The notes beneath the pieces are model-generated. The model did no database searches. It saw only the letters and a list, made by a program, of their open reading frames with translations, and was not told where the DNA came from. A DNA stretch of 64,000 nucleotides from the NCBI GenBank assembly GCA_049889275.1, contig JBMHDS010000085.1, positions 153,470 through 217,469 of the forward strand. Reading direction: 5' to 3'. Within the stretch, counting starts at the first letter, position 1; the number at the start of each line of letters is the position of its first letter. The stretch is from Bradymonadia bacterium (GTDB lineage: Bacteria > Myxococcota_A > Bradymonadia > UBA7976 > UBA1532). The position numbers and the translations under genes are program-made. Positions 19,794 to 43,390 of the stretch are shown in pieces.

Positions 19794-19875
19794 GTCTATC
19801 TCCTGGCAAATTCTGAGGAAGCCGTAGGACTCAGCCTACGGCCGGTTTGATTCACTGCGACCGAATGTCACGCCT

Positions 19876-24333: not shown

Positions 24334-24465
24334 TTTGTATCTCCTTTGTCACTGACACTTTGCTAGGGCGCACACACCTGTCCTGTTCGACACGGCTCAA
24401 GCGAGCTGTCGTCGGAGAGCGCGCGCGCTCAGTTTTGCTTTAGTCGTTCACTTTGGTGCTAAGGC

Positions 24466-25887: not shown

Positions 25888-26350
25888 CTTTATCCTCCCT
25901 GGATAATCCCGCTCGAACCATCGAGTCGGGTAGGCGTCCATGCCTGTTTCGTGGAATTAACCGGTTGGCCCTTGCCCACCGTATGTAACTGTTTTCGATG
26001 AGGAATCTGCCGTCTTGGCCTGTTCCGTCTCGCTTCACCCTAGTCATCGTCATACGCGCCGCCAACTTGAGAAAAAAGTGCATCATTATGTGTTTTTTTT
26101 TCGTGATACCGATCCAACTAGCTTATCCGGCCAGTTTAAGTACCCCCTGATATAGTTATGGTGCGAGCCCTCACCCCTAAAAGAATCAAGCCTAGTAAAA
26201 TCAAGCACTTAAAGAACACTCAAAACAGCGGAACGGACATCAAAATTATCCACGTGCGACCATGATAGTGGTAAATATTGGCGATAAATAACTGCATTGT
26301 ATAACGCAGATAATTTTTCGGATGACTTTTTATGCGGCCAGTATGCGGGC

Positions 26351-26379
26351 TTCAAAATCAAGTTGCTTGCCCTTATAAT
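26351..26379 (+). promoter_or_regulatory. Sigma-70-like promoter candidate (TTCAAA-17-TATAAT)
   Basis: -35 TTCAAA at 26351-26356, 17-nt spacer, perfect -10 TATAAT at 26374-26379, about 36 nt upstream of the ORF starting at 26415; lies in an AT-rich tract. Confidence 0.35.
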
Positions 26380-26414
26380 TGCACCACATATCAATCTTGG
26401 CGGGCGGGTGAACG

Positions 26415-26768
26415 ATGCGACTAAGCACAATCTTAAAATGGGGACTCGTCGCGATCGGTGTGTTCGTTGCTGTTCAATTCGCAAGCGTCTATGTGACGCG
26501 CACGCAGCTCAGCCATATCATTGAGACCGTTGCGATCGAAGCACGTCGCAAACAGATGACTCGGTCGGAGATTAAGACGGCGCTCTTAAACGAGATGAAT
26601 CAGAACAACACAGAGCTACCGATGCAATTGCAGATCACGAGCGAGGGCATCGGCGAACGCAAACGACCACTTAGAATCACGCTCGACTACGAACACGTCG
26701 TGGATTTGAAGGTGATGGAAGTGACAGTATCAATGTCAGCGAGCGGGGATTCGAAACCCGCTCTCTAA
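26415..26768 (+). CDS. Small membrane protein (hypothetical)
   Basis: N-terminal TM helix (ILKWGLVAIGVFVAVQFA); 117 aa. Confidence 0.45.
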   Translation: MRLSTILKWGLVAIGVFVAVQFASVYVTRTQLSHIIETVAIEARRKQMTRSEIKTALLNEMNQNNTELPMQLQITSEGIGERKRPLRITLDYEHVVDLKVMEVTVSMSASGDSKPAL

Positions 26769-26772
26769 GAGA

Positions 26773-29406
26773 TTAAAGGCCTTGCGTCAGCAGGTCCGGC
26801 ACAGATGCGATGACGCGTTCGAGCGCTTCAACGTCCTTACCACCCCCCTGCGCGAAATCGGGTCGACCACCGCCCCGTCCATCCAATTGGCCAGTAATCG
26901 CTTTGACGAGTTGACCTGCGTGGAATCGGGGGTCGCCCTTAAGCTGGGGACCGGTAGCAGCAATGATCACAGCAGCACCGTCTAGCTTTGCCCCGAGCGC
27001 GATCACCGCGCCCGGTGCTTTATCCCGAAGACGGTCGACCAGAGCCGCGAGGGTCGGCCGTGCATCGACCTCGACTGTGCGCGCGACCACCGGTACACCA
27101 TCGACTTGGCTTGCTTCGGCTAGCCACGCATCAATGTCCTGTCCTCCCCCGCTCTTGCGCGCCTTGTCCAGCGCCTTGCGCAGCTGTTTCAATTCGTCGA
27201 CCAATCCGGCGACACGCTCAACAAGATTGCCCGGGTCGGTCTTTAAAACGTCCGATGCCGCGCGAAGGGTCTGGCGCTCATCGATCGACCGAGCATCGGC
27301 AGCGTGGCCCACCACCGCTTCAATCCGTCTGACACCGGCTGCAACCCCCGTCTCTGAGGTCACGCGAAATGAACCGATTTCACCCGTTGCTTTGACGTGA
27401 TTGCCACCACAGAGTTCGAACGACATCGGACCCGCTTTGACGGTTCGGACCGTATCACCGTACTTTTCACCGAAGAGGGCAACAGCGCCTTGGTCGCGAG
27501 CCTCATCAATTGACACACCTTCGTGAATCTCGACGGTGTGATTGTCACGAATCTGCTGGTTAACGATATGCTCAATACGCAAGAGCTGCTCGTCGCTCAG
27601 CGGGGCGTTATGACTGTAGTCAAAACGCAATCGATCTGGTTCAACCACGGAGCCCTTCTGCTCCACGTGCTCTCCAACCACATCTTGCAGCGCACTGTGC
27701 ATGAGATGCGTCGCTGTGTGGTGGATGGTCTTCATCGCTCGTCGGGCCGTGTCGACATGGACCAAAACAGGCCCATCAACATGCCCCTCGAGCGAACCGT
27801 CCGTCAAAACTCCAAAGTGGTGTACGATACCGGTCAACTTTTGAACGTCGTCTATCCGTACACGCCAGTGGTCTGTCGTCAGCGTACCGAAATCCGCAAC
27901 CTCACCACCACTCTCCGCATACAGGGGCGTCTCTGCGAGCACAAACTCGACGCGCTCGCCTTTCTGCCGATAACGCATGATGTGAGTGGATAACTCAGTC
28001 AAGCCATATCGGGCGAAGCCATCACCGCCACCTTCACGCACGATGTGCCAATCGCCACCGTCCTGATCATAAAACTTAGCGGCCTGTTTAGACTTTGCTT
28101 TCTGGCGCTTCATCTCACGGTCAAAGCCATCAGTGTCCACAATAAAGCCATGATCAGCCGCCTCGATCTCTGTGAGTCCAACGGGAAATCCGAAGGTATC
28201 GTAGAGTTCAAAGGCTTCCTGGCCTGTGATCAACTTGTCGTCTTGCTTCTGCGCCATCATGGCATGGATCCGACCCATCCCTCGGTCGATGGTACGGAAG
28301 AAGCGCGCTTCCTCGTCTTTGATCGCTGTCGCGGTGTTGTCCAAGATATGAGCGGGTAAATCGTATACGCCATCAAAGACTTCAGCGATCGTGGGCATAA
28401 GCGTGGATAAGAAGGGTCCATCAAAACCTAAACGTCGCCCGTGACGGACCGCTCGTCTGAGAATTCTTCGAAGTACATACCCGCGTCCTTCATTAGAAAA
28501 CTGTCCACCCTCGCTGACCACAAAGGTGAGCGTGCGTAGGTGGTCGGCGATCACCTGCATATCGACTCGGCGGTCATCGTTGGTCCGGTCAGCGCCCGAC
28601 AACCGTGCAATGTGTCCTATGATCGGCTGGAAAATATCCGTATCAAAAACATTCGTCTTGCCCTGGAGGATCATTGTCATGCGCTCAAGACCCATGCCGG
28701 TGTCCACCGATTGGAGCGCCAATGGGGTCAACTCGCCGGCGTCGTCGCGGTTCGACTGCATGAACACATTATTCCAGAATTCCATATAGCGGTCGCCCTC
28801 GCCGCCCATGTAATCTTCTGGTCCTGTGCCAGCCTCTGGGCCGAGGTCGTAGAAGAGCTCTGTGCACGGTCCACAAGGCCCTACAGGGCCCATCGACCAA
28901 AAATTTTCGTCATCACCTTGAGCGAGGTCGCCAAACCGATAAATCCTCTGCTCCGGAAACCGTATTTCATCGCGCCAGATTCCGAAGGCCTCTTCGTCAT
29001 CTTTGTAAATGGAGACGTAGAGTCGTTCCGGATCCAGCCCGAAGACGTTGACCGATACATCCCAGGCCATCTTGATAGCATCTCGTTTGTAATAGTCACC
29101 GAAAGACCAGTTCCCCAACATCTCGAAGAGGGTGAGATGCCGGCCATTCTTGCCCACCGCATCGAGGTCGTTATGCTTACCGCCGGCTCGTACACATTTT
29201 TGAACAGAGCAAGCGCGCGTGTAGTCGCGTTTCTCTTCGCCGAGCAGTAGAGACTTGAATTGATTCATACCCGCATTGCAGAATAGTAAGGTGGGGTCAT
29301 CCCTCGGAATCAGGGGAGACCCTTCGACTTCCTTGTGCGGCAGGGTGGTATTGTCTGCAAAGTAATCGAGAAACTTTCTTCGAATGCTTTTATGAGTCCA
29401 TGTCAT
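26773..29406 (-). CDS. alaS: Alanine--tRNA ligase
   Basis: DPTLLFCNAGMNQFK, VRAGGKHNDLD, and the HxxxH/CxxxH editing domain; 877 aa. Confidence 0.97.
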   Translation of the reverse strand: MTWTHKSIRRKFLDYFADNTTLPHKEVEGSPLIPRDDPTLLFCNAGMNQFKSLLLGEEKRDYTRACSVQKCVRAGGKHNDLDAVGKNGRHLTLFEMLGNWSFGDYYKRDAIKMAWDVSVNVFGLDPERLYVSIYKDDEEAFGIWRDEIRFPEQRIYRFGDLAQGDDENFWSMGPVGPCGPCTELFYDLGPEAGTGPEDYMGGEGDRYMEFWNNVFMQSNRDDAGELTPLALQSVDTGMGLERMTMILQGKTNVFDTDIFQPIIGHIARLSGADRTNDDRRVDMQVIADHLRTLTFVVSEGGQFSNEGRGYVLRRILRRAVRHGRRLGFDGPFLSTLMPTIAEVFDGVYDLPAHILDNTATAIKDEEARFFRTIDRGMGRIHAMMAQKQDDKLITGQEAFELYDTFGFPVGLTEIEAADHGFIVDTDGFDREMKRQKAKSKQAAKFYDQDGGDWHIVREGGGDGFARYGLTELSTHIMRYRQKGERVEFVLAETPLYAESGGEVADFGTLTTDHWRVRIDDVQKLTGIVHHFGVLTDGSLEGHVDGPVLVHVDTARRAMKTIHHTATHLMHSALQDVVGEHVEQKGSVVEPDRLRFDYSHNAPLSDEQLLRIEHIVNQQIRDNHTVEIHEGVSIDEARDQGAVALFGEKYGDTVRTVKAGPMSFELCGGNHVKATGEIGSFRVTSETGVAAGVRRIEAVVGHAADARSIDERQTLRAASDVLKTDPGNLVERVAGLVDELKQLRKALDKARKSGGGQDIDAWLAEASQVDGVPVVARTVEVDARPTLAALVDRLRDKAPGAVIALGAKLDGAAVIIAATGPQLKGDPRFHAGQLVKAITGQLDGRGGGRPDFAQGGGKDVEALERVIASVPDLLTQGL

Positions 29407-29448
29407 AACGGGTTGCCTCCCAATCGATCACACGGTCCAAATGAACCC

Positions 29449-29477
29449 TTGACGGCTATGGTCATACAAGATGGTAT
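29449..29477 (+). promoter_or_regulatory. Sigma-70-like promoter candidate (TTGACG-17-TGGTAT)
   Basis: Located in the divergent alaS / lipoprotein intergenic region, upstream of the ORF at 29523. Confidence 0.3.
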
Positions 29478-29522
29478 GCCGCTTAGAGCCACAGCTCGTC
29501 GACTCAGAAACGAGACCATCAG

Positions 29523-29966
29523 ATGGACGACACTACTAACCAAATCGATACGCCAAAACAATGGTTTAAGCGGTTCGCCCTCGCCTTTTGTCTTGTTTCA
29601 GTATCCTGCGGTGGCAATCCTAGAGAAGAAGTATACGGCCGCTATCGCATCGACTTGGCGCATCAACTCGACAACTTGCGCTACGAGGAACTCAAGCCAG
29701 CCGTGCAGCGAACCTTCAAACGACTGACAACAACACTCGCCCAGCATGCCACCTATCGGTTTTCCGCTGAGGGTTGTGCTCGCGAGATCGGCGGCGTCGA
29801 GAAGTCATTTACCTGTGAGTTCCTTCGGGTGGAAAAGCGCCGGACCGTTGTTTATCGCTCAGTGGATGATGCCGGCAGAACTCGCTATCTGCGGTTGACA
29901 CCAACCGAACGGGGTGTGAGGCTCGATAACGGTATATTTGATCGAGAATTGGAACGGATTCCATAA
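29523..29966 (+). CDS. Hypothetical secreted/lipoprotein (family member 1)
   Basis: Signal peptide with LVSVSCG lipobox-like motif; first of three tandem small secreted proteins. Confidence 0.45.
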   Translation: MDDTTNQIDTPKQWFKRFALAFCLVSVSCGGNPREEVYGRYRIDLAHQLDNLRYEELKPAVQRTFKRLTTTLAQHATYRFSAEGCAREIGGVEKSFTCEFLRVEKRRTVVYRSVDDAGRTRYLRLTPTERGVRLDNGIFDRELERIP

Positions 29967-29981
29967 GAGCTGAGCCTAAGG

Positions 29982-30386
29982 TTGTTCATGAAATTTCTCT
30001 CTACGCTATTGTTGTGTTCGCTGATGACGATTGGTTGCGGAAGCGAAACCGAATTCCTCGAAGGCAAATGGCAGGTAGATGTTGAGCGCACCATCATGGC
30101 GAATTTGGAGTCGCTCACGCCCATGTCGCGCCACTCCATGGCTGATGTCACGCGGCAACTGACCGATCTCGAACTTCATTTTGGTGAGTCGGGACGTCTG
30201 ACGGTGGCGCGAGGTCGTCACTCAGTGAAAGCTGAATATGGACTCAAACAAAACAAGCCTAACTTTATCGAACTGTGGGTAACAGATGGTGCACGTCGCG
30301 AATCGTTGGGTGTACGCATGGATAATGCCACCCTCTGGTTGATGAACGGTGGTGACTTGATCGCACTGAATCGCAAATCACTATGA
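29982..30386 (+). CDS. Hypothetical lipoprotein (family member 2)
   Basis: LLLCSLMTIGCGSE lipobox; sequence similarity to the next ORF (KWQVDVERTI / RWALDAKRTL; GRLTV / GRLFF). Confidence 0.5.
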   Translation: MFMKFLSTLLLCSLMTIGCGSETEFLEGKWQVDVERTIMANLESLTPMSRHSMADVTRQLTDLELHFGESGRLTVARGRHSVKAEYGLKQNKPNFIELWVTDGARRESLGVRMDNATLWLMNGGDLIALNRKSL

Positions 30387-30823
30387 AGAATCTCAAGCGA
30401 CTCGCCCTCTCCACGACCATAGCCGTAGGGCTGATGATTGCGTTGAAGGTGAGTGGGGTTGAGTTCAGCTCTAAGCCGCCGGAAGAACGTCTCGTTGCCA
30501 GGTGGGCACTCGATGCGAAACGAACGCTGTTCGAATCAGTACCCACCGACGCATTACGCAGTACCTATTCTGCCGTTGGCGCGAACCTCTCAGACTTGCG
30601 ATACCAGTTCACCAATGACGGCCGATTATTTTTTGGTCCTCAAGTAAAGCTGGCTCACATCGCCAACTATGAAGTCGCCGGTATTTTACCCAACGGCGTG
30701 CAGTTGCAGCTCAAATATGTGGATGGACGCGCAGGCACCGTGGAGAAAGCGACTGTGACTTTTCCCGACTCATTCATGGCGTTCAAGCGCGGCGACCACG
30801 TCGCCGTTTGCGCGCGCGATTGA
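30383..30823 (+). CDS. Hypothetical secreted protein (family member 3)
   Basis: Signal peptide; 4-nt overlap with the previous gene; paralogous to 29982-30386. Confidence 0.5.
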   Translation: MKNLKRLALSTTIAVGLMIALKVSGVEFSSKPPEERLVARWALDAKRTLFESVPTDALRSTYSAVGANLSDLRYQFTNDGRLFFGPQVKLAHIANYEVAGILPNGVQLQLKYVDGRAGTVEKATVTFPDSFMAFKRGDHVAVCARD

Positions 30824-30833
30824 ATCCGCTGGC

Positions 30834-31658
30834 TCAGCCCTTGACGCCACCCGCCGTCAAGCCACCGACAAGATGCTTCTGGAGCGCAAAGAAGAGCGCC
30901 ATTACTGGAATCGATACGATCAAGCTGCCCGCGGCGAATAGCCCCCATTCGGTCGAATAATCACCGACGTACTGTTGCAACCGGACCGGCAGGGTGTAGG
31001 CGCGCTCGTCACTCATGAACGTGGCCGCAAGAATGTACTCGTTCCAAGCAGTCATGAAACTAAAGAGCGCCGTCACAGCGATAGCGGGACGCGACAGCGG
31101 CACAATAATACGCCAAAAAATTGTAAAAGGAGATGCCCCATCCATGACCGCGCTCTCCTCCAATTCGATGGGAATCGTGTCGAAATAGCCCTTCAACATC
31201 CAAACGCAGAACGGAATCGCGGTCGTCGAATAAACGACGATTAAACCGAGCGCCTGGTCGAGTAGACCGAGCCAATCGATGATCTGATAGAGAGGAATCA
31301 TCATCATCGTCCCTGGAAACATTTGGGTCATCAGGAGTGCCATCATGCCTGCGCGTCGCCCCGGAAACCGATAGCGGCTGAATGCATAGGCCGCAGTACA
31401 CGACAAAAAGATGCCCACCACCGTCGTCGCAACCGAGATGAGAACACTGTTGAAAAGCTGCTGCCAAAAATAGGGCGCATCCATGACCTCACGGAAGTTC
31501 GACAAGTCAAAGTGACTTGGAATCAGCGTCAGACTGGTATCAAAGTCTTGGCTTGGTCGAAGCGCCATTTTGAAGACCGCGACCACAGGAAAGAGCGTCA
31601 GCGCTGTCAGCGGCACGAGGAGTAAGTGAAGATGCCATTGTGGGCGAGTCTGCTTCAT
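30834..31658 (-). CDS. Carbohydrate ABC transporter permease (MalG-like)
   Basis: Six TM segments; EAA-loop region (ESAVMDGASPFTIFWRIIVPL). Confidence 0.85.
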   Translation of the reverse strand: MKQTRPQWHLHLLLVPLTALTLFPVVAVFKMALRPSQDFDTSLTLIPSHFDLSNFREVMDAPYFWQQLFNSVLISVATTVVGIFLSCTAAYAFSRYRFPGRRAGMMALLMTQMFPGTMMMIPLYQIIDWLGLLDQALGLIVVYSTTAIPFCVWMLKGYFDTIPIELEESAVMDGASPFTIFWRIIVPLSRPAIAVTALFSFMTAWNEYILAATFMSDERAYTLPVRLQQYVGDYSTEWGLFAAGSLIVSIPVMALFFALQKHLVGGLTAGGVKG

Positions 31659-33298
31659 GATGCCGACGCCTCGCTTTCACGACCCGCCCGCTGCGTGAGC
31701 GCGCTATAGGCGAGCAATACGAAGAAGATGACGAGTGAGTACGCAGCGGCATAACCGTAGCGCTCACGCTCGAATGCCCAACGATAGGCTTCAGTGATCA
31801 AAATATCGGTGCTGCCGTCGGGACGCCCTCCGCTCACCAAGTAGACAATATTAAACATATTGAAAGTCCACACGGATCCCATGATCACGGCTGGCAGAAG
31901 CGCCGGCCGCAGCAGTGGAATGGTGATGTGTCTGAACGCTTGCCATCGACTCGCGCCGTCGACTTCGGCTGCTTCGTAGAGGTCGGCCGGAATGCTCTGG
32001 AGTGCCCCCAAGGTGACCACCATCATAAAGGGAAAACCAAGCCACGTATTCGTCGCAACATTCGCGCTAAATGCAGTACCGAAAGAACCGAACCAATCCA
32101 CCGGCGAACTCCCAAGTTGAGTGAGCAGTGCATTGATCACGCCAAATTGTTGATTGAACATCCCCTTCCATACCAGCGCCGTGATGTAACTCGGGACAGC
32201 CCAAGGTACAATGAGTAACACGCGGTACACCCCCTTAAGCTTGAGGTCGGGTCGATTTAATAGCAAAGCGAGCGCGAGCCCGATTGCGACATGTAAAAAC
32301 ACATTAAGCGCCGTCCACAAAACGGTCACCCCAAGGGTGAAATAGAAATTGAGTGGATGGAGAAGCGGATAGTCTTGATTGGTGAGAATCTCTATAAAGT
32401 GGGCCAACCCAACCCAACTAAAGTCTCCCTGGCTGAACCTAAAGAACGAAAGACACACGCCAAATAAAAACGGCAGTAGCACCAAAACGCTGAGACCGAT
32501 AACCGCTGGGGCGATGTATGTGTAAGCCACGCGATTTGGACTTGCTTGGCCTTGATTTATCCAGCCTTGAATCGCACTCCATATGAGTGGCATGAGCGGC
32601 AACGCGAAGACCGCGTAGTGCCGCGCGCCCCATCCGAATTCGGGCGTGCCCAACAGATTCGCCGCCCCTGCTTCTAGTTCGGCGAGAACCATGAGCAGCA
32701 AAGCCGACATGCCCATTGCAGTAACGATGGGTCCGAAAAGCGTACGCACCGGTCTCGATTGTCCCTGTTTGAGCAGCCAGCCCCACACACACAATCCCGC
32801 CAGCATCGTCAGAAACAACCAAAGATAAGCCGATCCTAAGTCGGCTCCCCTCACTTTGCCCTCGACAATGATCGCGCGATTCGGCGGCACGAACTGCAAA
32901 CCTCTTAAATGAGCGCCATCAGCCATGAAGCGACGGCCGAGTTCGGCTGCGACCCAAAGATTGGCGTCAGTTTTGTTTACGCCGTCGAGACGTTTCTCGG
33001 AGACAGCCAAATCGACGTAAGAAAAGCTTCGTAAGAAAGCGTATTGATTATCGCGGCTTTTGGTCTCGATTATACGGACTTCGTAACCAGCCTCGCGTGC
33101 TGAACCCAGCGCGCGCTGAACACTTGAGGGTGCATCCTCAGCCAATGCCGAGGCTAAGCCAACGACGGCCGCGCGATCTGTCTCTCCGACGATGAAGTCC
33201 CCGTAGTAACTCAGAACAACTGCCGCTAATCCAAGCGCGATGAGGGTTGAAGCGATGGGTCCGAAGAGAGCGACTTGATTTGGCCTGTGTGTCGTCAT
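31655..33298 (-). CDS. Carbohydrate ABC transporter permease (MalF-like, extended N-terminal periplasmic region)
   Basis: EAAEVDGASRWQAFRHITIPL EAA motif; 547 aa with additional N-terminal TM and loop region as in MalF. Confidence 0.85.
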   Translation of the reverse strand: MTTHRPNQVALFGPIASTLIALGLAAVVLSYYGDFIVGETDRAAVVGLASALAEDAPSSVQRALGSAREAGYEVRIIETKSRDNQYAFLRSFSYVDLAVSEKRLDGVNKTDANLWVAAELGRRFMADGAHLRGLQFVPPNRAIIVEGKVRGADLGSAYLWLFLTMLAGLCVWGWLLKQGQSRPVRTLFGPIVTAMGMSALLLMVLAELEAGAANLLGTPEFGWGARHYAVFALPLMPLIWSAIQGWINQGQASPNRVAYTYIAPAVIGLSVLVLLPFLFGVCLSFFRFSQGDFSWVGLAHFIEILTNQDYPLLHPLNFYFTLGVTVLWTALNVFLHVAIGLALALLLNRPDLKLKGVYRVLLIVPWAVPSYITALVWKGMFNQQFGVINALLTQLGSSPVDWFGSFGTAFSANVATNTWLGFPFMMVVTLGALQSIPADLYEAAEVDGASRWQAFRHITIPLLRPALLPAVIMGSVWTFNMFNIVYLVSGGRPDGSTDILITEAYRWAFERERYGYAAAYSLVIFFVLLAYSALTQRAGRESEASAS

Positions 33299-34485
33299 TG
33301 GCTCGCTTTTCTAATCGCTTTTTCGGCCTCGAGGATCGCGTTATCAACGGCCTTACCTCGAACGATCGTCTGGGATAGCAGTCGACTCAGCGGCGACCAC
33401 AAATGCCTTACCATCGGGTCATTACTCAATGGCTGAGTGCGCGAAAGCTGGGCTCGGAACGCCTTCGCAAAGTGGTCATTGCGCACGTCTGCGCGATCAT
33501 ACACTGCGCGGTTGGCCACCAGTTGGCGACCAGTAGACCAGCGCGACAACGCTTCTGAATCTGAGGTAATGAAACGTGCCGCGATGAGCGCTGCCTCCTT
33601 TACCGGACTACGGGCGCTCAGCATCAAGGCTTCAACACCGAGAAATGGTCTGAGCGCCTTACCCGTTTCACTGAGCTCAGGGAGAGGTGCGACCCCCCAT
33701 TTGGCATGGCCTCTGAGCGCATTCTCGAACCAGGGCCCGTCGATAACGAACGCAAGCTTGCGCTGCTTAAAAAGTGCCGCGATCTGTGCTGCTGCGGCCC
33801 CTTTGGGCATCAGGCCGTCGGTGAGCAGTCGCCGCATGTATGCCAAACTCGACCGCATACCGGGCGAATCGACCCGCACCTCTTGCTTCTCGTTGAGCAC
33901 CTGTCCTTCAAATGCATGCAGCCATGGCGCGTGGTAGTAAAAGCTATCTACGGCAAACCCAATGCCCCAATGTTCGCTCGAGCGCTTTGCGGCGCCCGCT
34001 GCCTGCCGCAGTAAGGCCTGCGATGTCGCCGGCACTTCATCTACCAGCGTCGCATCATAGTATAAAGCCAACGTTTTGAAGCCCATCGGCAACCCGTAGA
34101 GCGTACTATGATAGACCAACGCGTTGAGCGTCTCATCGAGGAACACGCTGAGTTCATCGCCCGTCAACCAGTAATCAAGCGGTTCAATTAAACCACCCCG
34201 GGCCCAATCGCCAACTTGATCATGCGCAAAGATGAAAAGATCGGGCCCATTACCCCGCGGTACTGCGACGCGCAATTTATTCGCGAAAGCGTCGTATGGA
34301 AGCGCGACGAGACGTAGTGGCTGCGCCGGATGCAACTCATTGTAGCGTTTAGCTGACGCCACGAGAGCCTCTGCCTCAGCGCCGCGGTACGCATGCCACA
34401 AAACGATCGATTTTTTGGACGGATTCGACGCATCGCAGCCCAAGACGGCGACGCATGTGACCATGAGTAAAAGATGCCGAATCAT
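33295..34485 (-). CDS. Extracellular solute-binding protein (maltose/maltodextrin MalE-like)
   Basis: Signal peptide/lipobox (LGCDAS); family-1 solute-binding protein fold pattern; sits within a permease/ATPase operon. Confidence 0.8.
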   Translation of the reverse strand: MIRHLLLMVTCVAVLGCDASNPSKKSIVLWHAYRGAEAEALVASAKRYNELHPAQPLRLVALPYDAFANKLRVAVPRGNGPDLFIFAHDQVGDWARGGLIEPLDYWLTGDELSVFLDETLNALVYHSTLYGLPMGFKTLALYYDATLVDEVPATSQALLRQAAGAAKRSSEHWGIGFAVDSFYYHAPWLHAFEGQVLNEKQEVRVDSPGMRSSLAYMRRLLTDGLMPKGAAAAQIAALFKQRKLAFVIDGPWFENALRGHAKWGVAPLPELSETGKALRPFLGVEALMLSARSPVKEAALIAARFITSDSEALSRWSTGRQLVANRAVYDRADVRNDHFAKAFRAQLSRTQPLSNDPMVRHLWSPLSRLLSQTIVRGKAVDNAILEAEKAIRKASQ

Positions 34486-35540
34486 AACCGCGCTTCAGTA
34501 TCGGCGTCGAACAGATGAAAACAATCATTGTCCACTCGAACACAGAATATATCACCCGGCCGGGGCGTCAGTTCGTGCGAGAGTGCCCGTAAGGTCAATT
34601 CACCACAGCGCAGGTGAATGAGGGTCTCATGTCCCATCGGCTCAATGAAATCTACTGTATACCGGCATTCGTCCTTGGCCGCACCGTCCGGAGAGACCAA
34701 AGTCAGGTCGTGTGGGCGTATACCGACGGTTACAGCCATGTCGTTGAGCTCGTCCCGAGAACCACAGCGCCAGCCACTCACCTCAATCTGCCCACTGTTC
34801 ACAGTACCGTCCAAGATGTTCATCGTCGGATGCCCAATAAAGCCAGCCACAAAGACATTCTCGGGTTTGGAATACAAATCCATGGGCGCGCCGACCTGCT
34901 GCACAACCCCATCCCGCATCAGCACGATTCGGTCGGCCAGGGTCATCGCCTCAACTTGGTCGTGGGTCACATACAGGCTGGTTGCTCCCAGCTCTCTGTG
35001 CAAACGCCCAAGCTCCATTCGCATATGAGTTCTCAGGCGCGCATCGAGATTGGAGAGGGGTTCATCGAATAGAAATACCTTAGGTTGGCGAACGATAGCC
35101 CGACCCATTGCAACACGCTGACGTTGACCGCCGGACATCTGACCTGGTTTTCGGTCCAATAGCTCTGTCAGCCCAAGTGCCGCCGCAGCCGTCGATACCC
35201 TCTTCTGAATCTCAGCCGCATCAAGCTTCTGAATGCGTAACCCGAACGCCATATTCTCTCGAACCGTCATATGCGGGTACAACGCGTACGACTGAAACAC
35301 CATCGCGACGTTCCGGTCTCGCGGCGAGACATTGTTCACTTCCACACCGTCGATCAGCAAAGCGCCGGTGGTGATGGATTCAAGCCCGGCCACCATGCGA
35401 AGTGTTGTCGTCTTGCCGCAGCCCGACGGGCCGAGCAAGGCAATGAACTCGCCTGCCTTTATGTCGACATTGACCCCTTTTACCGCTTGAAAACCGTTTG
35501 GATAGGTTTTGGTCATATTTTGGAGGGTGACTTGCGCCAT
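34482..35540 (-). CDS. Sugar ABC transporter ATP-binding protein (MalK/UgpC-like)
   Basis: Walker A GPSGCGKTT, LSGGQRQR signature, Walker B LFDEPLSNLD, C-terminal TOBE regulatory domain. Confidence 0.9.
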   Translation of the reverse strand: MAQVTLQNMTKTYPNGFQAVKGVNVDIKAGEFIALLGPSGCGKTTTLRMVAGLESITTGALLIDGVEVNNVSPRDRNVAMVFQSYALYPHMTVRENMAFGLRIQKLDAAEIQKRVSTAAAALGLTELLDRKPGQMSGGQRQRVAMGRAIVRQPKVFLFDEPLSNLDARLRTHMRMELGRLHRELGATSLYVTHDQVEAMTLADRIVLMRDGVVQQVGAPMDLYSKPENVFVAGFIGHPTMNILDGTVNSGQIEVSGWRCGSRDELNDMAVTVGIRPHDLTLVSPDGAAKDECRYTVDFIEPMGHETLIHLRCGELTLRALSHELTPRPGDIFCVRVDNDCFHLFDADTEARL

Positions 35541-36029
35541 AGAGGACCTGTTTCATCAAGTTGTACTTATCGTCTGCGCTTCTAGGAATGGTCCTCGGCG
35601 GACCAAAGTCGTATCCTCATCTGTCAGGCGACGTGCACAATTCTCAAAGGCTCAACGAGTTAGCAACCCTAAACTGAGTCACGAGTGTAATTTTTGTATT
35701 TTTTTCGTCTGTCAGGTCTTGATTTACTCAACGTCTTGCTAGCTGCCGGCGGCATGCCTATGCCCACCAACCCCACCATGCCAAAAAACAAAGCCTCATC
35801 TCCAAACCAATCCGCCCGGCCGAGACAACCTGCCGCCGATGGCCTAACAGACCATGAAAACGGCTATTTTCTGGTCATTATTCGCCTCGCGGTCAAGGAA
35901 CGAGTATACAAAAAACATGCACCCCAACCGGCACCAATAATTATTTCGCTTGGCAAGACCTCGGAAATCATAGGTTTTTCATTAAAACAAGGCGGCCGAC
36001 TGAAAAACCGCTGGCACAAAAGGACTTAA

Positions 36030-36272
36030 TTCGTAGCCTTATAAGTGGACATGGGGCATGAGGAGTGTGAGGGCAGCAGTAATATCCCGTTACCATAAGC
36101 CCGGGAGCGGTCACTGACGATGGTGAGCAAGCCGACCAAAGTAGTCGGAAGCCTAAAGTCGTTACTTACTGAACCCACCTAGTGAGGTCCACGGGTATTT
36201 CACGTCCCAAGACTCACTTCACGTGATGACCAAATCCAATACGGGGTGCCCACGGGCGCCCCGTTTTTTTTT
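36030..36272 (+). ncRNA. Candidate unannotated small RNA (identity unknown)
   Basis: 730-bp coding-poor interval (35541-36270) with no convincing ORF, ending in a strong plus-strand intrinsic terminator; 5' end not determined. Confidence 0.25.
36243..36272 (+). terminator. Bidirectional rho-independent terminator (GGGGTGCCC-ac-GGGCGCCCC + T9)
   Basis: Perfect GC-rich stem followed by 9 T on the plus strand; on the minus strand it follows the dtd stop codon (A-run / stem / U-rich). Confidence 0.75.
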
Positions 36273-36738
36273 ACATCGTTTTCTCGGAATCAAACACGAT
36301 GGTGACCGGTCCGTCATTGGTGAGCGACACCTTCATATCAGCTTGAAATTGACCCGTTTCGACCACCGCCCCAAGTTCTTTCAATCGGCGATTAAACCGC
36401 CGGTATAGCTCGAGCGCTCGGTCCGGCGGTGCGGCCCGAACGAAGGATGGACGTCTACCCCGCTTACAGTCGCCATATAGCGTAAACTGGCTCACGCTCA
36501 AGATCGCCCCACGGACATCGAGAACGCTCAGATTCATCGCGCCGTTCGCATCACTGAAAATCCGAAGACCCACAAGCTTCTTCGCAATGTACTCCACGTC
36601 CTGTTCCGTGTCCTCAGAGCCTGCGGCGATAAGCACTAAGAGGCCTGCATCAATTTGTCCGACAATTTCGTCATCCACCGTAACCCGAGCTGTGGTTACT
36701 CGTTGTACAACCGCCCTCAAAATCAGCTCCAATTGCAT
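36271..36738 (-). CDS. dtd: D-aminoacyl-tRNA deacylase
   Basis: SQFTLY and NDGPVT motifs; 155 aa. Confidence 0.9.
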
Positions 36739-36806
36739 TGTTCGGGAGCTGAGTATGACAGATCTCGTTCACAATTTTACTCGTTTGTGATAATTCCTTC
36801 GAGCCT

Positions 36807-37394
36807 TTGGTATATCGATCGGTTAATTCAATGAGTGACCAAAATCGAAAAACGCTCCGTAGCTTCTATTGCCGGGACTATTTATGGGACCTCTTTGAGG
36901 TGATGACACGGGACCTCGGCTGCTCGGTCGATTACCTGATCAACGAATCGATGCGGCACTATGCGAGGAGCCGTAACTACAGCCTCACATCGGCTGCGGA
37001 AGCCGTCTCCAACGAGGCTCCACGCTCGCGTGAGCCTGGCAACGCACAGCGACGGCCTCCACCATTACCCCACGGTTCTCCACAATCCGGCAGGCGCCCG
37101 AAGGAAGCGGTTCGACCGAGCATGTACCTTCTGTTCAACGGCCAGAGATATCGTCTCGACAAAGACCGCTTTATCATCGGCCGTGGTAGTCAGGTCACCG
37201 ACCTTACGATTCGCGATGGAAACATTTCCCGTAAACATTGCGCGATCATTTATCGGGGCGGAAACTACTTCATCAAGGACCTCGATAGTACCAACGGCGT
37301 TGAGTACAACGGGAAGCGAGTTGAGCGAAAAAGGATAGAAGAGGGCGACACTTTTTACCTGTGTGATTACGAGCTCAGATTTACATTCCGCTAA
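36807..37394 (+). CDS. FHA-domain protein
   Basis: C-terminal FHA domain (FIIGRGSQVTDLTIRDGNISRKHCAIIYRGGNYFIKDLDSTNGVEYNG); possible alternative start at 36828. Confidence 0.75.
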   Translation: MVYRSVNSMSDQNRKTLRSFYCRDYLWDLFEVMTRDLGCSVDYLINESMRHYARSRNYSLTSAAEAVSNEAPRSREPGNAQRRPPPLPHGSPQSGRRPKEAVRPSMYLLFNGQRYRLDKDRFIIGRGSQVTDLTIRDGNISRKHCAIIYRGGNYFIKDLDSTNGVEYNGKRVERKRIEEGDTFYLCDYELRFTFR

Positions 37395-37461
37395 GAGACG
37401 TCCCCCAGCCCAACAACAGCTCAGATGACATCGATGCTCGGGGCATGATGCGCTCGCTTGC

Positions 37462-40098
37462 TCAATGCTCGAGCTTCTCCGGGTCCCGCACAAGCCTAAA
37501 GCCGTGGTCTAGGTTAGGTACATCCCTGAGCACAGCCTGCCGATGTGTCGTACGGCACGCTGGCCCTCCTTGGCTTAGATAGGAACCACCACGCACGACG
37601 CGCAGAGACTCATCGGCATCGAAGGTGCTGTCACAGTACTCGCGTACTAGGCCTGCCATATCGAAGACACCGTACGGTGAGCAATCAGTACTGAAACTGC
37701 CCACACGAGTCGGCATCGGAGACCCCGGAGTCGAACGCGCCATTTTGCAGAATGTTTCGTCGAAGGCATCACCCCAAGGATACCAACGGCCATCGACACC
37801 ACGTGCCGCTTTCTCCCACTCGAGCTCAGTTGGTAAGCGCACCGCGATTCCGGTTCGATTTCGATACCACTCAACATAGCGCTCAGCATCATCAAAACTC
37901 ACTCCGAAGACAGGCCAGTGAGCCGCCCACCGATAACCATGTCTGTCCATCTGCGGCCACACGATTCGACCTTCAGCACGGCCCCATAGCTGGCCACCAT
38001 CCGGTCTTGTACGAGGCGCCCGTTGAATGGCCTCCTCGGGCGCTGACTTATCGAGGTCACGGAGGAATGCGAGATATTCAGCGCAAGTCACCGGATAGCG
38101 TGCGACAAAGAAATCATCGAGTTCTTCAACCCTACGCAACATCGCCGCAGCCGAAGTCGGGTCACCGCCAGCGATGAATCGACCCGCTGGCACGTGTAAA
38201 TAATGAGTTCCGATTTCCTCGTCGGTGAATAAGCGACAGCTGATGTCGATAATCTCCGCACGCTGAACCAAAACTGGCATCGTCACGTTTCGATAACCAG
38301 GCGCGCTCACGTTGAGCTGCCAAGCCCCCTCTTCAATGGGATAAGCGCCGAGTGGCGTGGTGCCAAAGTTTATCGCAGGCTTGGTCCGCCATATGTGGCC
38401 ATCTTCATCGATCTGCCCAGCCTCAACTGTGGCAGTGATCGGTGCCGTGCGTATGTTGAGACGACTGACCCCCGTCAATTGTTCTGCATAAAGCCCCCTG
38501 TCGTAGGTGGCGACAAGTGCACGGAATCGCTGCGCGCCTTCTTTGTCACCGTCCTGCTCTGCCTGGGTCAATGCGGACCAATAGAGGCGCGCCAATTCGT
38601 TGCACGCTTCATCATTATTCGGGTTAAACCCAATCGCCTCCACGAGCGTTTTGACCGCCACTTCGAATGTCCGGTTCAATTCGGCTTCAAGCTGCCTCAA
38701 TCTTGACTGGCTCGCCCAAAGCGCAGACTTCGTCTGCTTGTCCGCGTAAGGCGGTGTATCCCATTCGAGGTCGAGTAATTCGTCACGACCCCGCAATGTC
38801 TCAGCCCGGGCCCTATGGTATTGGGCGATGAACTCTAAACTCGCCTCAAGGCGCTCTTCCGATTGCCTCTCGCGGCGGTCGCGGTCTTCGACACCTGACA
38901 AATAGGCATTGAGAGCTGTGAGCATGTCGGCAACAGACTGGTACCTGTCCTTAGGACGCTTCGCGAGTGCTTTGACGCATATTCCTTCTAATGCGGCTGG
39001 AATATTTTTATTGGGCGCGACCTCGGTTGGCGCTCGAAGCTGTTGGGTGATGACCGCCTTGAGCGTTTCCTTCTGGGTCTTCTCATGAAAGGGTCTGCGC
39101 AACGTGAGGATTTCGTATAAAACAGCACCGAGTGCATAGACGTCCGCCCGTCCATCCAGCCGGTCGATTCGCCCGGCGGCCTGCTCAGGCGGCATATATG
39201 AGGGCGTGCCGGTGATCAAGCCCATCATCGTCGCGTCGCCAGCCGTACTACGTTCGGTCTGCACCGCCTGTTCGAGGAGTTCTTCTTCACTCGATGTACC
39301 AAGCACTTTTGCGACGCCCCAGTCGAGCAACAGGACTTCACCAAAATCCCCAATCATGATGTTGGCAGGCTTGATATCCCGATGGATCACATTCCGGCTG
39401 TGCGCAAAGGCGATCGCCTGGCACATGCTGATGAACATACCGATGAGTCGCGTTCGACTAAATTCCCCCTGCACGCTGGCATCTTCTGTTCGTAAGGCAC
39501 GCAAGACTTCCTTCAGGGTTCGACCCTGAACGAGCTTCATCGTGAAAAACATTTCGCCATTCTTGAGATGACCAAACTCATGCACTGGAACGATATTGGG
39601 ATGCTCAAGTTGAGCTGTAATCTGAGCCTCTTCGACAAACTTATTGCGGACATATTCGGTGGCATCGTGCCCATCGATGAGTGTCTTCATCACAATCGTA
39701 CGCCTAAGGTCCTGATCGCGCACTAACGAGATACTACCGACACCGCCACGTGCAAACTCTCGTACAAACTCGAACCGCTCACCCGATTGAGCAGTGTGAC
39801 CATCCGCACGACTTCCTGACGGCGCATCCGTGGCTGGAGCAGAGTCAGCGTATTCATCTTGAAACATCTGCACGAGCTCTTCATCGACAGAATCCATTGT
39901 CGCTGTAAGCTCACTCTGCTCAGCTTCCTCAAGGGTCTCGACAGATACAGGCAGCAGCCGATAACCGATATCCTGGAGCGCATGAATTAGCTCTGCGACC
40001 TCCACGTCGGAGAGGCCTCGGCTTCTAATCAAATTCGCGAAGCGACTCGAAATGGATTTCTCGTCCACAAACACCTCACCCGGGGGTCGTTTTGGCAA
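37462..40098 (-). CDS. Ser/Thr protein kinase fused to a C-terminal FGE-sulfatase (SUMF1-like) domain
   Basis: Kinase motifs VMKTL, HRDIKPANIM, DFG, TPSYMPPE; C-terminal RLPTELEWEKAARG...GVFDMAGLVREYC...VVRGGSY formylglycine-generating-enzyme-like domain. Confidence 0.85.
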   Translation of the reverse strand: MPKRPPGEVFVDEKSISSRFANLIRSRGLSDVEVAELIHALQDIGYRLLPVSVETLEEAEQSELTATMDSVDEELVQMFQDEYADSAPATDAPSGSRADGHTAQSGERFEFVREFARGGVGSISLVRDQDLRRTIVMKTLIDGHDATEYVRNKFVEEAQITAQLEHPNIVPVHEFGHLKNGEMFFTMKLVQGRTLKEVLRALRTEDASVQGEFSRTRLIGMFISMCQAIAFAHSRNVIHRDIKPANIMIGDFGEVLLLDWGVAKVLGTSSEEELLEQAVQTERSTAGDATMMGLITGTPSYMPPEQAAGRIDRLDGRADVYALGAVLYEILTLRRPFHEKTQKETLKAVITQQLRAPTEVAPNKNIPAALEGICVKALAKRPKDRYQSVADMLTALNAYLSGVEDRDRRERQSEERLEASLEFIAQYHRARAETLRGRDELLDLEWDTPPYADKQTKSALWASQSRLRQLEAELNRTFEVAVKTLVEAIGFNPNNDEACNELARLYWSALTQAEQDGDKEGAQRFRALVATYDRGLYAEQLTGVSRLNIRTAPITATVEAGQIDEDGHIWRTKPAINFGTTPLGAYPIEEGAWQLNVSAPGYRNVTMPVLVQRAEIIDISCRLFTDEEIGTHYLHVPAGRFIAGGDPTSAAAMLRRVEELDDFFVARYPVTCAEYLAFLRDLDKSAPEEAIQRAPRTRPDGGQLWGRAEGRIVWPQMDRHGYRWAAHWPVFGVSFDDAERYVEWYRNRTGIAVRLPTELEWEKAARGVDGRWYPWGDAFDETFCKMARSTPGSPMPTRVGSFSTDCSPYGVFDMAGLVREYCDSTFDADESLRVVRGGSYLSQGGPACRTTHRQAVLRDVPNLDHGFRLVRDPEKLEH

Positions 40099-40275: not shown

Positions 40276-41133
40276 ATGTACACGTTGTTTTTGGCCCTTG
40301 GTTTGAGCATTTTGATCTCGGTCGTGCCCGCACTGTTTGGGGTCTCTGCCATCTATACAGTGTTGCCGGGCACAGTGATCGGTATCTTTGCATTTGTCCT
40401 CATCGGGCGTCGAATATCCAAGCGCGTGGAGATGGTGACCCGCGCGGCGGATGCGGAGATGGCAAAAGCACAGAACATCGCGGCACGGTCCGGTGCAAAA
40501 GCTCAGTCGGTTATGATGCGCGCGATCGACGCCTCTGTCGCACGACTCAAGACGGGTATGGTGTTTGCAAAATGGCAGATCGGTGTCACGACGATGCTCA
40601 ATGCACGGATCGGAATGCTGCTTTACACCAAGTCACTGTTGCTGCAACAGGGTGGCAAGAAGAAGGGCGTTGCCGAGGCACTCAAGGCAGCGATCCCCTA
40701 CCTCGAAGCGAGTCAGGTGAAAGGTAAAAAAGCCAGACTGTTGCAAGCGCTATGGCCTGCTTGGGCAATGCTTGCAATCGCCCATTATCGAACCGACCAA
40801 GGCATCGACGGCGCCGTAGGTGTCTTAGAGAACACAGTCAAGGTGGCGCCAAAGAACGGGCTTCTGTGGTCTCTATACGCCTACCTGCTGTGGAAGAGTA
40901 AAAGGCTGGACGAGGCGTTAGATGTGCTCGTCCGCGGAAAGGCTCAGGCCGACGCGGATAAACGGCTCGATGAGAACCTCACGCTTCTACAGAACCGTAA
41001 GCCAATGAAAATGAGGGCTTATGGCGAGCAGTGGTACCAATTTGGCCTAGAGCAACCGAGAGCTGCGCAAGCACAAGCTCAAATGGGTCATGCCCGCATG
41101 CGAGGCAAAACGCGTGGTGGCCCTCGAAGATGA
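40276..41133 (+). CDS. Membrane protein with TPR-like C-terminal region (hypothetical)
   Basis: Start set at MYTLFLALGL (two N-terminal TM helices); helical repeat-like C-terminus. Confidence 0.45.
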   Translation: MYTLFLALGLSILISVVPALFGVSAIYTVLPGTVIGIFAFVLIGRRISKRVEMVTRAADAEMAKAQNIAARSGAKAQSVMMRAIDASVARLKTGMVFAKWQIGVTTMLNARIGMLLYTKSLLLQQGGKKKGVAEALKAAIPYLEASQVKGKKARLLQALWPAWAMLAIAHYRTDQGIDGAVGVLENTVKVAPKNGLLWSLYAYLLWKSKRLDEALDVLVRGKAQADADKRLDENLTLLQNRKPMKMRAYGEQWYQFGLEQPRAAQAQAQMGHARMRGKTRGGPRR

Positions 41134-41149
41134 AACGCCTTTGACCCAA

Positions 41150-43390
41150 ATGGAAAAGCTCGGTCGCTACACACTCATCCGTCGTCTCGCGTCGGGTGGA
41201 ATGGGGCAGGTGTATCTCGCTCGGACAGAGGGCGCCGCAAACTTCTCCAAGGAGTTTGCAATCAAACGCATTCTCCCGCATTTGAGCGATGAACCAGATT
41301 TCGTACGCAAGTTTATCGACGAGGCAAATGTGATGGTTCAACTCCATCACGGCAACATCGTTCCTGTCGTCGAGCTCGAGTCCACTGGATCAGAGTTATA
41401 CATCGTCATGGAGTATCTGCCTGGACGAGACCTCAAAAATGTCATGAGGGCCTGTCGCGAACGCGGCATTCAATTTCCACTACATTTAGCCCTCTGGCTC
41501 ACCCATCAAGTACTGATGGGTCTTGAGTATGCCCACCGTAAGCAAGACCAAGCAGGTCAAAGCCTCAACATCATTCACCGCGATGTGAGCCCGGCAAACA
41601 TCATGCTCGGCGCAGGCGGCGCGGTGAAGTTGATCGACTTTGGAATCGCCCAAGCACGGGGCCGCTTACAGCAAAGTGCCTCTGGGACGCTTCAAGGTAA
41701 ATTTGTTTACATGAGTCCAGAGCAAGCTGTCGGACGCACACTGACACCGGCGACCGATATTTTTTCAGCGGGTCTCATTTTATATGAACTCATCTGCAAT
41801 TTAAGACCCTTCGACGCCGACAGTGAAACAGAAACCCTAAGGCTCGTACGTGCGTGCGACGTGAAGGCGCCAAGGGTATACGTGCCGCAACTACCAGAAG
41901 CGGTTGATACCCTTATCATGAAGGCTCTCTCCGCCGCCCCCTCGGAGAGATTCGAGTCAGCGGGTGCAATGGCCCGGGCTATTCAGCATTTTCTGGTGCT
42001 CGACGACAGCCAGGCCGGGCCAGGGGCGTTATCCGACTTTCTGCGCGAGGTGTTTCCAAATGGTGTCGTTCCAACCGAAGCACCACAGCCTCGCACTTTA
42101 GACGATGCGCTCTTAAATCAACTCGATGCCTTTACGCCAAGCTTCGCGAGGGTCGAACATACACAAACGCAAACGAAGACATCCGGCATCGAGCGTGTGT
42201 CCATCGTTGCCGATCCCCTGCCCGACGATGGTTCAAGTCGGCCTTCAGCGCCGCTAGAAAATACTCACGACGCGAATCCAAGTTCGAACGTTTCGGTCGT
42301 CCAGGGGCCGCCGACCGGTCGAAAACGAATGCTCGCATTTGGCTTATTGCTGGGCATCCTGGGAACGATTATCCTGCCGTTGACGACGAGTACACCACCG
42401 GCGGTTCCCTTGCGGGTGATCGTACAACCAGAATCTGCCCAGCAGGTCGATATCACTGTCGATGGCGCACCGCTCGTAGACAACGACAGTTTCCGAATCG
42501 GAAGAGCCCACACAATTTGTGCACAAGCCGCCTATTTTGAGAAGACCTGTAAGCGCCACATGCACTCAGAAGATAACGCTGAGGTGACGCTGCGGCTTAT
42601 CCCCTTCCCTCGTCTGGAACCTCAAGTCACACCAAAAGGTGTACCCCATCGGGTCCTAGTCGATCGCGTGGTGACCAGTCGATGGCCGCTCAGCTTAGAG
42701 CCAGGTAAAGAGTACGTCGTATGTGTCGAATCTCAGGCGTACTCGGCAGAACCACCGTGCCAAAGAGTCCGCTCGAACAAGCCGACTCTGAGACCCGCGT
42801 TTCAACTCACCAAGCGAACCCAACAAGCCTCGCTCCAGACGCCTACCGCGACGCCGACCCCCGAGCAAAACTTGGCAAACACCAAGCCGGCAAACGCAAA
42901 ACAGGACCCCCGTAAGCAGGTGGCCAAAACAACACCGTCGACGGCGAAGAAAGACACGCCAAGGTTCGTCACGCTTCGCAGCATCCCGAGCGCAACAGTT
43001 TTCCGTCTGGGCCAAGAGGTCGGGGTGACGCCGTACAAAGTCAGACTCGACAAAAAACGTCACATGATGACGCTCAAAGCAAAAGGCTACGCAGACACCG
43101 ATGTGAAAGTCGATTCAAACACGCCGATCGGAACAAAAACCGTGATTCTAAGGAGACCTGGCTACCTCACGGTGCGCGTCAAACCGTCAGCGAGCACCAT
43201 CTACATCGACGAGAAAAAGGTTGGGCGTGGGGTCCTCGTGAAACATCCGGTAAGGCCAGGAAAACACACCTTGAAGGTTGTTTATGCCGGTGGAACCAAT
43301 CAGCCTGGCTCAAGCCAAACGATGGTTTTCTCGGTAGATTCTGGCCAGCATCTGCGGCATCCTCCGGTAGAGATACGCTTAAGCAAATAA
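41150..43390 (+). CDS. Ser/Thr protein kinase with C-terminal PEGA domains
   Basis: Kinase motifs GGMGQVYLA, AIKRIL, HRDVSPANIML, DFG, YMSPEQ; TM segment; two PEGA-like repeats (FVTLRSIPSATVFRLGQEVGVTPYKV; YLTVRVKPSASTIYIDEKKVGRG). Alternative upstream start at 41090. Confidence 0.85.
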   Translation: MEKLGRYTLIRRLASGGMGQVYLARTEGAANFSKEFAIKRILPHLSDEPDFVRKFIDEANVMVQLHHGNIVPVVELESTGSELYIVMEYLPGRDLKNVMRACRERGIQFPLHLALWLTHQVLMGLEYAHRKQDQAGQSLNIIHRDVSPANIMLGAGGAVKLIDFGIAQARGRLQQSASGTLQGKFVYMSPEQAVGRTLTPATDIFSAGLILYELICNLRPFDADSETETLRLVRACDVKAPRVYVPQLPEAVDTLIMKALSAAPSERFESAGAMARAIQHFLVLDDSQAGPGALSDFLREVFPNGVVPTEAPQPRTLDDALLNQLDAFTPSFARVEHTQTQTKTSGIERVSIVADPLPDDGSSRPSAPLENTHDANPSSNVSVVQGPPTGRKRMLAFGLLLGILGTIILPLTTSTPPAVPLRVIVQPESAQQVDITVDGAPLVDNDSFRIGRAHTICAQAAYFEKTCKRHMHSEDNAEVTLRLIPFPRLEPQVTPKGVPHRVLVDRVVTSRWPLSLEPGKEYVVCVESQAYSAEPPCQRVRSNKPTLRPAFQLTKRTQQASLQTPTATPTPEQNLANTKPANAKQDPRKQVAKTTPSTAKKDTPRFVTLRSIPSATVFRLGQEVGVTPYKVRLDKKRHMMTLKAKGYADTDVKVDSNTPIGTKTVILRRPGYLTVRVKPSASTIYIDEKKVGRGVLVKHPVRPGKHTLKVVYAGGTNQPGSSQTMVFSVDSGQHLRHPPVEIRLSK

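Follow-up and report, generated by a model that had tools for sequence, protein, structure and literature searches.

6S RNA is among the few near-universal bacterial regulatory RNAs. In its published definition it is a transcript of 160-200 nt with a closing stem, a central bulge, an apical stem and its own terminator, and the definition also includes a hairpin opposite the central bulge and synteny at the level of the family (PMC8414754). The mechanism worked out for the 6S RNAs of E. coli and B. subtilis is the source of the functional proposal made below (PMC3299989, PMC8876501, PMC8414754). In E. coli the genomic context is zapA-ssrS-fau, where fau encodes 5-formyltetrahydrofolate cyclo-ligase and ssrS is co-directional with it.

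The locus compared with these systems lies in a 64-kb window, by which we mean the whole stretch of DNA analysed (64,000 nucleotides). Positions 36047-36237 of its plus strand are very probably an ssrS-type 6S RNA gene of an uncultured marine Myxococcota bacterium, as judged by sequence comparison. Its context is a sugar ABC-transporter operon on one side and a convergent dtd gene on the other, and it has a terminator of its own. The predicted RNA is 191 nt long, which is within the described length of ~160-200 nt; its predicted ends were taken from the positions of the promoter and the helices.

The gap between the malK-type gene and dtd

The RNA gene was found in a gap of 730 bp, positions 35541-36270, between the gene of a MalK-type ABC ATPase and dtd:

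34482-35540, minus strand: ABC ATPase of the MalK/CysA type, with ABC_tran and TOBE_2 domains
36271-36738, minus strand: dtd, D-Tyr-tRNA deacylase (Pfam E = 4.8e-59)

The ATPase gene is the first of an operon that also encodes a solute-binding protein and two permeases. The first-pass annotation had described the gap as free of convincing ORFs and lower in GC than its surroundings, with the upstream genes all on the minus strand, and these descriptions were borne out. The gap holds short ORFs only, none of them with a Pfam match; its GC content in 200-nt windows is 0.45-0.53, against ~0.55-0.60 in the flanking genes; and from 18750 to 35540 every gene of at least 200 aa is on the minus strand. 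With all upstream genes facing the other way, the case made for an independent transcript from the plus strand holds.

Relatives and synteny

The exact Dtd protein of the window was found on short metagenome contigs only, and homologues that are 96% (locus L084) and 86% (L085) identical to it were found on long contigs. Both of these loci have the order kinase, FHA gene, dtd, ~730-bp gap and malK operon. AlaRS, encoded ~7 kb away in the window, has its best named matches in MAGs labelled Myxococcota, Myxococcales or Bradymonadia, at 59-73% identity, and this protein comparison places the organism among uncultured Myxococcota. L090, from an NCBI Myxococcota MAG (GCA_036339195.1, JAYZCI010000155.1), has an AlaRS 70% identical to that of the window and the same dtd-gap-malK layout; in L089, where AlaRS is 68% identical, the layout is rearranged. 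A DNA pattern made from the invariant apical hairpin of the RNA found five more copies in JGI metagenomes, L091-L095, one of them truncated.

The RNA gene adjoins dtd at every locus. In six loci the two genes converge; in L089 and L092 they point the same way. In the latter two (L089 368-1160, L092 4150-5130) the 6S unit of promoter, RNA and terminator is inverted and lies downstream of dtd on the same strand, and a gene of 868-937 aa is inserted between the 6S unit and the malK operon. The dtd gene of L089 was called only as an 87-aa fragment, which could be a frameshift from long-read assembly or a real disruption.

Twenty dtd loci from other phyla served as controls, and none of the 20 had a 6S gene within +-3 kb of dtd, so that the linkage to dtd is specific to the Myxococcota clade studied. 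The controls came from a contig search with Dtd as bait, in which the best matches were at most 63% identical, came from many phyla and included no close relative; this search was unproductive because Dtd is too conserved across phyla. One of the control loci, L035 from an Acidobacteriota MAG, has two copies of Acido-Lenti-1 RNA (RF01687) near dtd, at 10-55 and 162-207, on opposite strands and scoring 55.5 and 62.7 bits.

Conservation of the gap

Between the window and L085, the core of the RNA at 36053-36238 is identical at 184 of 186 positions (98.9%). The flanking coding sequences are 78.8% (dtd), 80.5% (malK) and 84.6% (FHA gene) identical between the same two loci, and the rest of the gap is mostly 51-69% identical, with indels, apart from a block at 35630-35730 and the promoter stretch at 36011-36052, which are 83-86% identical. 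The only two substitutions in the RNA core of L085 are G36099>U in the 5' bubble and A36139>C in the apical loop. In these alignments the constraint on the conserved segment acts on RNA, not on protein.

The comparison bears on whether the gap encodes a small protein to which the terminator would belong, either the 111-aa ORF at 35694-36029 or one of the ORFs of 48-61 aa that overlap the conserved segment. ORFs of 48-111 aa do occur in the gap, and at the corresponding place on a short contig (L082) a partial ORF of 66 aa was called. Against this, the ORFs of 111, 77 and 61 aa are without a Pfam match, no gene was called in the gap of L084, L085 or L090, and the 98.9% nucleotide identity comes without the synonymous drift that is seen in the neighbouring genes. 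We give a small protein almost no credence, and prefer to read the conserved segment as an RNA gene.

The 111-aa ORF was also tried as a gene and rejected. Its substitutions against two relatives are spread evenly over the three codon positions (14/10/15 and 33/34/53), with gap columns and indels besides, and the coding controls gave 14/11/74 for dtd and 36/11/159 for malK. Since the ORF shows no excess at third positions, it is not coding. The first-pass annotation had already set aside the 111-aa and 61-aa ORFs, rightly as it turns out, and had named a small protein with conserved homologues as the finding that would speak against a small RNA here; a check of the gap revealed no such protein.

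A match to the 6S family just below the Rfam gathering score

An Rfam scan of the whole 64-kb window at default gathering thresholds gave no matches. With an E-value threshold, Infernal matched 36087-36195 on the plus strand to RF00013 (6S/SsrS) at 45.5 bits, which is 0.9 bit short of the gathering score of that family, 46.4 bits. The E-value of the match is 6.2e-6 when the whole window is searched, 8.7e-8 for a region of 901 nt and 2e-8 for the candidate alone, and no other Rfam family reaches E <= 0.05 in the window.

The match is confined to model positions 41-146, a local alignment that takes in the innermost pairs of the closing stem, both strands of the bubble and the entire apical stem; the Rfam model does not recognise the closing stem. 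The RNA was missed at the default threshold because its closing stem has drifted from the family seed. At the related loci the 6S score is 60.0 bits for L090, where the full model (1-187) aligns and the RNA lies at 654-822 of the locus, 48.4 bits for L085, 45.5 bits for L084 (the same as for the window) and 33.4 bits for L089. L085 and L090, both of them orthologues in the dtd/malK gap, thus exceed the gathering score of 46.4 bits.

An Rfam/Infernal scan was one of the checks that the first-pass annotation had proposed, and the match that it brought out is visible in E-value mode only. The same annotation had reported that the gap could not be matched to RNase P, tmRNA or SRP RNA. For tmRNA this agrees with an ARAGORN search of the window for tRNA and tmRNA, which found none, but a known identity does exist in 6S RNA, which had not been considered.

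A weak partial match was seen between the apical hairpin region, 36129-36166, and Legionella RNA 10 (LPR10, RF02824), at 18.9 bits and E = 0.3-1.3. It runs through the motif AAGCC..hairpin..GGAAGCCUAAAG, which LPR10 may share with 6S RNAs.

Predicted fold and covariation

The predicted RNA has the parts of a 6S rod in the following order:

36047-36237, plus strand: predicted 6S RNA (SsrS), 191 nt, from the inferred +1 at G36047 to the last base of the terminal helix
36047-36089, plus strand: closing stem, 5' strand, from the anchored helix table, RNAalifold and pair counts; helices H1 GGA/UGG, CAUG, H2 GGAGUG, H3 UG.GGGC, H4b AAUA and H4 CCCG
36090-36102, plus strand: central bubble, 5' strand, UUACCAUAAGCCC, which aligns to the unpaired 5' bulge of the Rfam 6S consensus
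36103-36176, plus strand: apical stem with internal loops, apical loop at 36137-36143; Rfam posterior probabilities mostly maximal
36177-36191, plus strand: central bubble, 3' strand, ACCUAGUGAGGUCCA
36192-36237, plus strand: closing stem, 3' strand, with CGGG, UAUU, GUCCCA, CACUUC, CGUG and CCA/UCC

Within the closing stem, the pairing of CAUG (36057-36060) with CGUG (36222-36225) comes from single-sequence folds. The fold was examined on an alignment, A3, made with MAFFT from eight full-length homologues, which represent only about five lineages. RNAalifold on A3 recovers the rod, with the closing stem, a central bubble of 13 nt on one side and 15 nt on the other, and the apical stem. It allows an additional pairing within the bubble, ACC.UA with UG.GGU, whose bases never vary.

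The canonical structure was compared on A3 with controls in which the pairing partners were slid. In the canonical structure 96.5% of cells are paired, against 34-45% with slid partners; six pairs are changed on both sides, against 0-3 in the controls; and the covariation score is 0.186, against at most 0.089 in the controls and reached by none of 500 shuffles. Apical helices 4-6 have 97.7-100% of their cells paired and include a double change from A-U to G-C at columns 75/116. The outermost helices were misaligned by MAFFT and were realigned by hand, with knowledge of the structure, using invariant motifs and the ends as anchors; in the helix columns anchored in this way, compensatory double changes number three in H1, four in H2, one in H4 and three in H4b. 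H1 reads GGA..UGG/CCA..UCC in the window and GAUCGG/CCGAUC elsewhere, and H2 occurs as GGAGUG/CACUUC, GGGGUG/CGCCCU and AGGCC/GGUCU across the homologues. A covariation analysis with relatives had also been suggested in the first pass, and its compensatory changes back the 6S rod.

Single sequences say less. Folded alone, the RNA has unremarkable stability (z = -1.5), and adding the terminator moves the z-score of the region to -2.9. The canonical inner closing helix did not emerge by itself from a constrained fold of the single sequence, and was taken from the Rfam alignment and the comparative data. Duplex energies did not discriminate between cognate and non-cognate arms of the closing stem, a comparison that is confounded because the arms of L089 and L092 are G+C-rich and the GAUCGG/CCGAUC ends are shared.

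In the closing stem, where 36067-36074 faces 36204-36212, all homologues have an invariant GUGAGGGC opposite GU(C/U)CCAAGA, with a bulged A and an asymmetric loop that contains AGA; the helices on either side of it covary. An invariant motif is unusual for the normally sequence-free closing stem of a 6S RNA, and this one may be a clade-specific contact site.

The 5' strand of the bubble and the adjacent strand of the closing stem are present and conserved. By analogy with described 6S RNAs, we infer that the 5' bubble at 36090-36102 is the region where initiation of the product RNA (pRNA) is to be expected. The 3' strand of the bubble can form a hairpin, ACCU (36177-36180) with AGGU (36185-36188), closed by a loop of 4 nt. 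Its stem is invariant in all eight homologues, and hence gives no covariation either way, and its loop varies among them (AGUG, GGUG, GCUG). Published 6S RNAs are described with a hairpin facing the 5' central bulge (PMC8414754).

If the RNA works as its counterparts do, it would mimic an open promoter and, in competition with promoters, occupy the active site of the RNA polymerase that carries the primary sigma factor, and this occupation would dampen housekeeping transcription as growth slows. Release would come later, when the polymerase transcribes a short product RNA from the 5' side of the bubble and the 6S RNA refolds; at that step the 3' bubble strand would form its ACCU/AGGU hairpin.

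Another small RNA, with a chance resemblance to 6S, could also score just below the Rfam gathering score and match the model only locally. Such an RNA might be a base-pairing regulator or be antisense to read-through from dtd, and a functional relation to dtd could be suggested by the position of the gene, which always adjoins dtd and, in six of eight loci, converges on it. L089 and L092, the two remaining loci, have the RNA gene in the other orientation, and an antisense relation is therefore not conserved. More generally, the 6S match has E = 6e-6 over the whole window with no competing family, the orthologues score 48.4 and 60.0 bits with one of them aligned to the full-length model, and the full rod with its central bubble is conserved and covarying. 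We regard another small RNA as very unlikely and retain the identification as 6S RNA.

Probable promoter, terminator and transcription unit

The RNA is flanked by two elements on its own strand:

36011-36039, plus strand: promoter-like element, with a -35-like CTGGCA (36011-36016), a 17-bp spacer and a -10-like TAGCCT (36034-36039)
36241-36272, plus strand: intrinsic terminator, with a stem at 36241-36264 of 10 pairs (8 of them G-C), a 4-nt loop and T9

The -10-like TAGCCT is followed by 7 nt and then G36047. In all eight homologues the pattern [TC]TGNC[AG]-N17-TANNNT-N6/7 ends at the first base of the terminal helix, and it has only 1-3 matches in +-1 kb on both strands. The hexamers are weak in comparison with the E. 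coli consensus; a sigma-70 consensus scan of 35300-36900 found no site, and the element was found only by comparing homologues. From this comparison we infer that CTGGCA-17-TAGCCT is a housekeeping-type promoter that sets the +1 at G36047. Measured from the promoter-defined +1, the terminal helix ends after 189-196 nt in the eight homologues; in the window the figure is 191 nt.

The T9 run of the terminator ends at 36272 and overlaps the stop codon of the convergent dtd gene. In L085 the terminator stem has a change from U.G to U-A, and each of the eight homologues has a G+C-rich terminator hairpin of its own, differing in sequence, at -21 to -30 kcal/mol and 3-6 nt past the terminal helix. 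These positions suggest that the 6S gene is its own transcription unit, with a transcript that would end at the hairpin and T9 and a primary length of ~220-226 nt.

The strong plus-strand terminator described in the first pass, with its 10-bp stem and T9, is real. It had been called bidirectional, and this half of the description fared less well: on the minus strand there is only a 5-bp sub-stem with a poor tail, ATTGGATTTG, and the full hairpin is followed by UAUUGGAUUU, a U-poor tail. Termination of dtd at the hairpin is possible but would be weaker than termination on the plus strand. The proposed independent plus-strand small RNA that ends at the terminator is likewise supported, with an extent of only ~36047-36272 instead of the whole gap.

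The overlap of the dtd stop codon with the T-run, and the place of the hairpin directly downstream of dtd, would also suit a hairpin that serves as the terminator of dtd, with no plus-strand transcript at all and a conserved block that is a DNA-level site or a remnant. Yet it is the plus strand that has the T9, with a poor tail on the minus strand; a DNA site would give neither compensatory changes in pairs nor a hit with an RNA covariance model; and in L089 and L092 the unit has its own terminator in the opposite orientation. This explanation seems extremely improbable next to that of a transcribed 6S RNA.

The remaining ~500 bp of the gap

By conservation and ORF content, the part of the gap before the RNA is a non-coding, poorly conserved spacer. 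It carries the promoter region of the 6S gene and presumably also that of the divergent sugar ABC-transporter operon. Rfam gave no match in 35541-36010, where two stretches stand out:

35936-35958, plus strand: upstream conserved motif, AATAATTATTTCGCTTGGCAAGA, about 90-110 nt before the +1, kept in L085
35630-35730, no strand assigned: conserved non-coding block, 86% identical in L085, against 51-62% in the adjacent gap

The upstream motif also occurs 5' of the 6S gene in L089 (about 780-812) and L092 (upstream of 4440), as ATAATTATTCGGG...TTTGGCAAGAAAAC, and across loci its form AATAATTATT(T)CG..TTGGCAAGA sits 25-110 nt upstream of the 6S promoter. L089 and L092 keep it even though their 6S gene is turned round with respect to dtd, so the motif moves together with the RNA gene. 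No conserved -10 follows the motif; it could be a distal promoter in degenerate form, an UP-like element or a factor-binding site.

The block at 35630-35730 is only loosely conserved in L095, L091 and L090. It contains an A/T-rich run and the motif CTCAAAGGC..GTTAGCAAC, has no Rfam match on either strand, and yielded no assignable sigma-54 or sigma-70 promoter for the malK operon when inspected by eye. The block lies outside the 6S gene and probably serves the divergent ABC-transporter operon as promoter or operator.

It is unlikely, though it deserves mention, that the clade-specific additions to the 6S gene, namely the GUGAGGGC motif, the AATAATTATT..TTGGCAAGA element and the strict linkage to dtd, reflect a partner protein or a regulatory input, and that, separately, 35630-35730 is an undescribed leader or operator of the ABC operon.

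Other features of the window

Beside dtd, at 36807-40098, are the gene of a small FHA-domain protein (195-aa ORF) and, convergent with it, that of an 878-aa Ser/Thr kinase with PEGA and FGE-sulfatase-like domains. This FHA/kinase pair is kept in L084, L085 and L095, and a second PEGA-containing kinase is encoded at 41090-43390.

At 18750-21288 and 23365-25941 are two modules, each with a flagellin gene (470 and 491 aa) and then a tyrosine recombinase gene on the same strand (Phage_integrase, 347 and 322 aa). The pairing of flagellin and recombinase is conserved in relatives (also L088, L089 and L090). The modules are reminiscent of recombinase-controlled flagellin switching. A repeat search of the modules found only a direct repeat of 98 nt, 70% identical, inside both flagellin genes, and no flanking inverted repeats.

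Significance for annotation

The identity is new for this locus and the family is well known: this is a new 6S RNA gene, and 6S RNA is an ordinary housekeeping RNA. The value of the finding is mainly one of annotation, in that standard Rfam/Infernal annotation misses this 6S RNA by 0.9 bit. The eight aligned homologues could provide a basis for a wider family model and for the annotation of ssrS in the Myxococcota clade, with the promoter, the terminator and the linkage to dtd as further anchors. The biology of 6S RNA as it is known is unchanged.

Comparison with known 6S RNAs

The closest relative in layout is the 6S RNA of L090. It has the same dtd/malK gap, promoter spacing, terminator arrangement and apical half as the window RNA. 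Its outer closing stem differs in sequence and yet pairs, with GAGGCC/GGUCUC where the window has GGAGUG/CACUUC and GAUCG/CGAUC where the window has GGA..UGG/CCA..UCC, and in this way it supplies covariation.

E. coli ssrS is 183 nt long, against 191 nt here, and both RNAs have a closing stem, a central bubble and an apical stem. Common to both are UACCA(U/C)AAG in the 5' bubble, CACCU at the 3' edge of the apical stem, and GGUGAGCA(A/U)GC and GAAGCCU(U)AAA, which flank the apical hairpin. They differ in the closing stem, which in the window is too divergent from RF00013 and E. coli for Rfam to align and has the clade-invariant GUGAGGGC with GU(C/U)CCAAGA.

Like published 6S genes, the gene described here seems to be monocistronic, with its own promoter and Rho-independent terminator, synteny at about the family level and a predicted hairpin that faces the 5' central bulge (PMC8414754, PMC8876501). 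The neighbours are different: rarA and uspA in Lactobacillales, dtd here, with no similarity outside the motifs that are family-wide. In B. subtilis 6S RNA is matured by RNase J1 (PMC10578484), which is not to be assumed for the window RNA.

Ms1 RNA of Actinobacteria, a look-alike, likewise folds into a 6S-like rod and binds RNA polymerase (PMC9130861). It binds the core enzyme, is longer, occurs in Actinobacteria only and forms a separate family, whereas the RNA of the window matches the 6S model.
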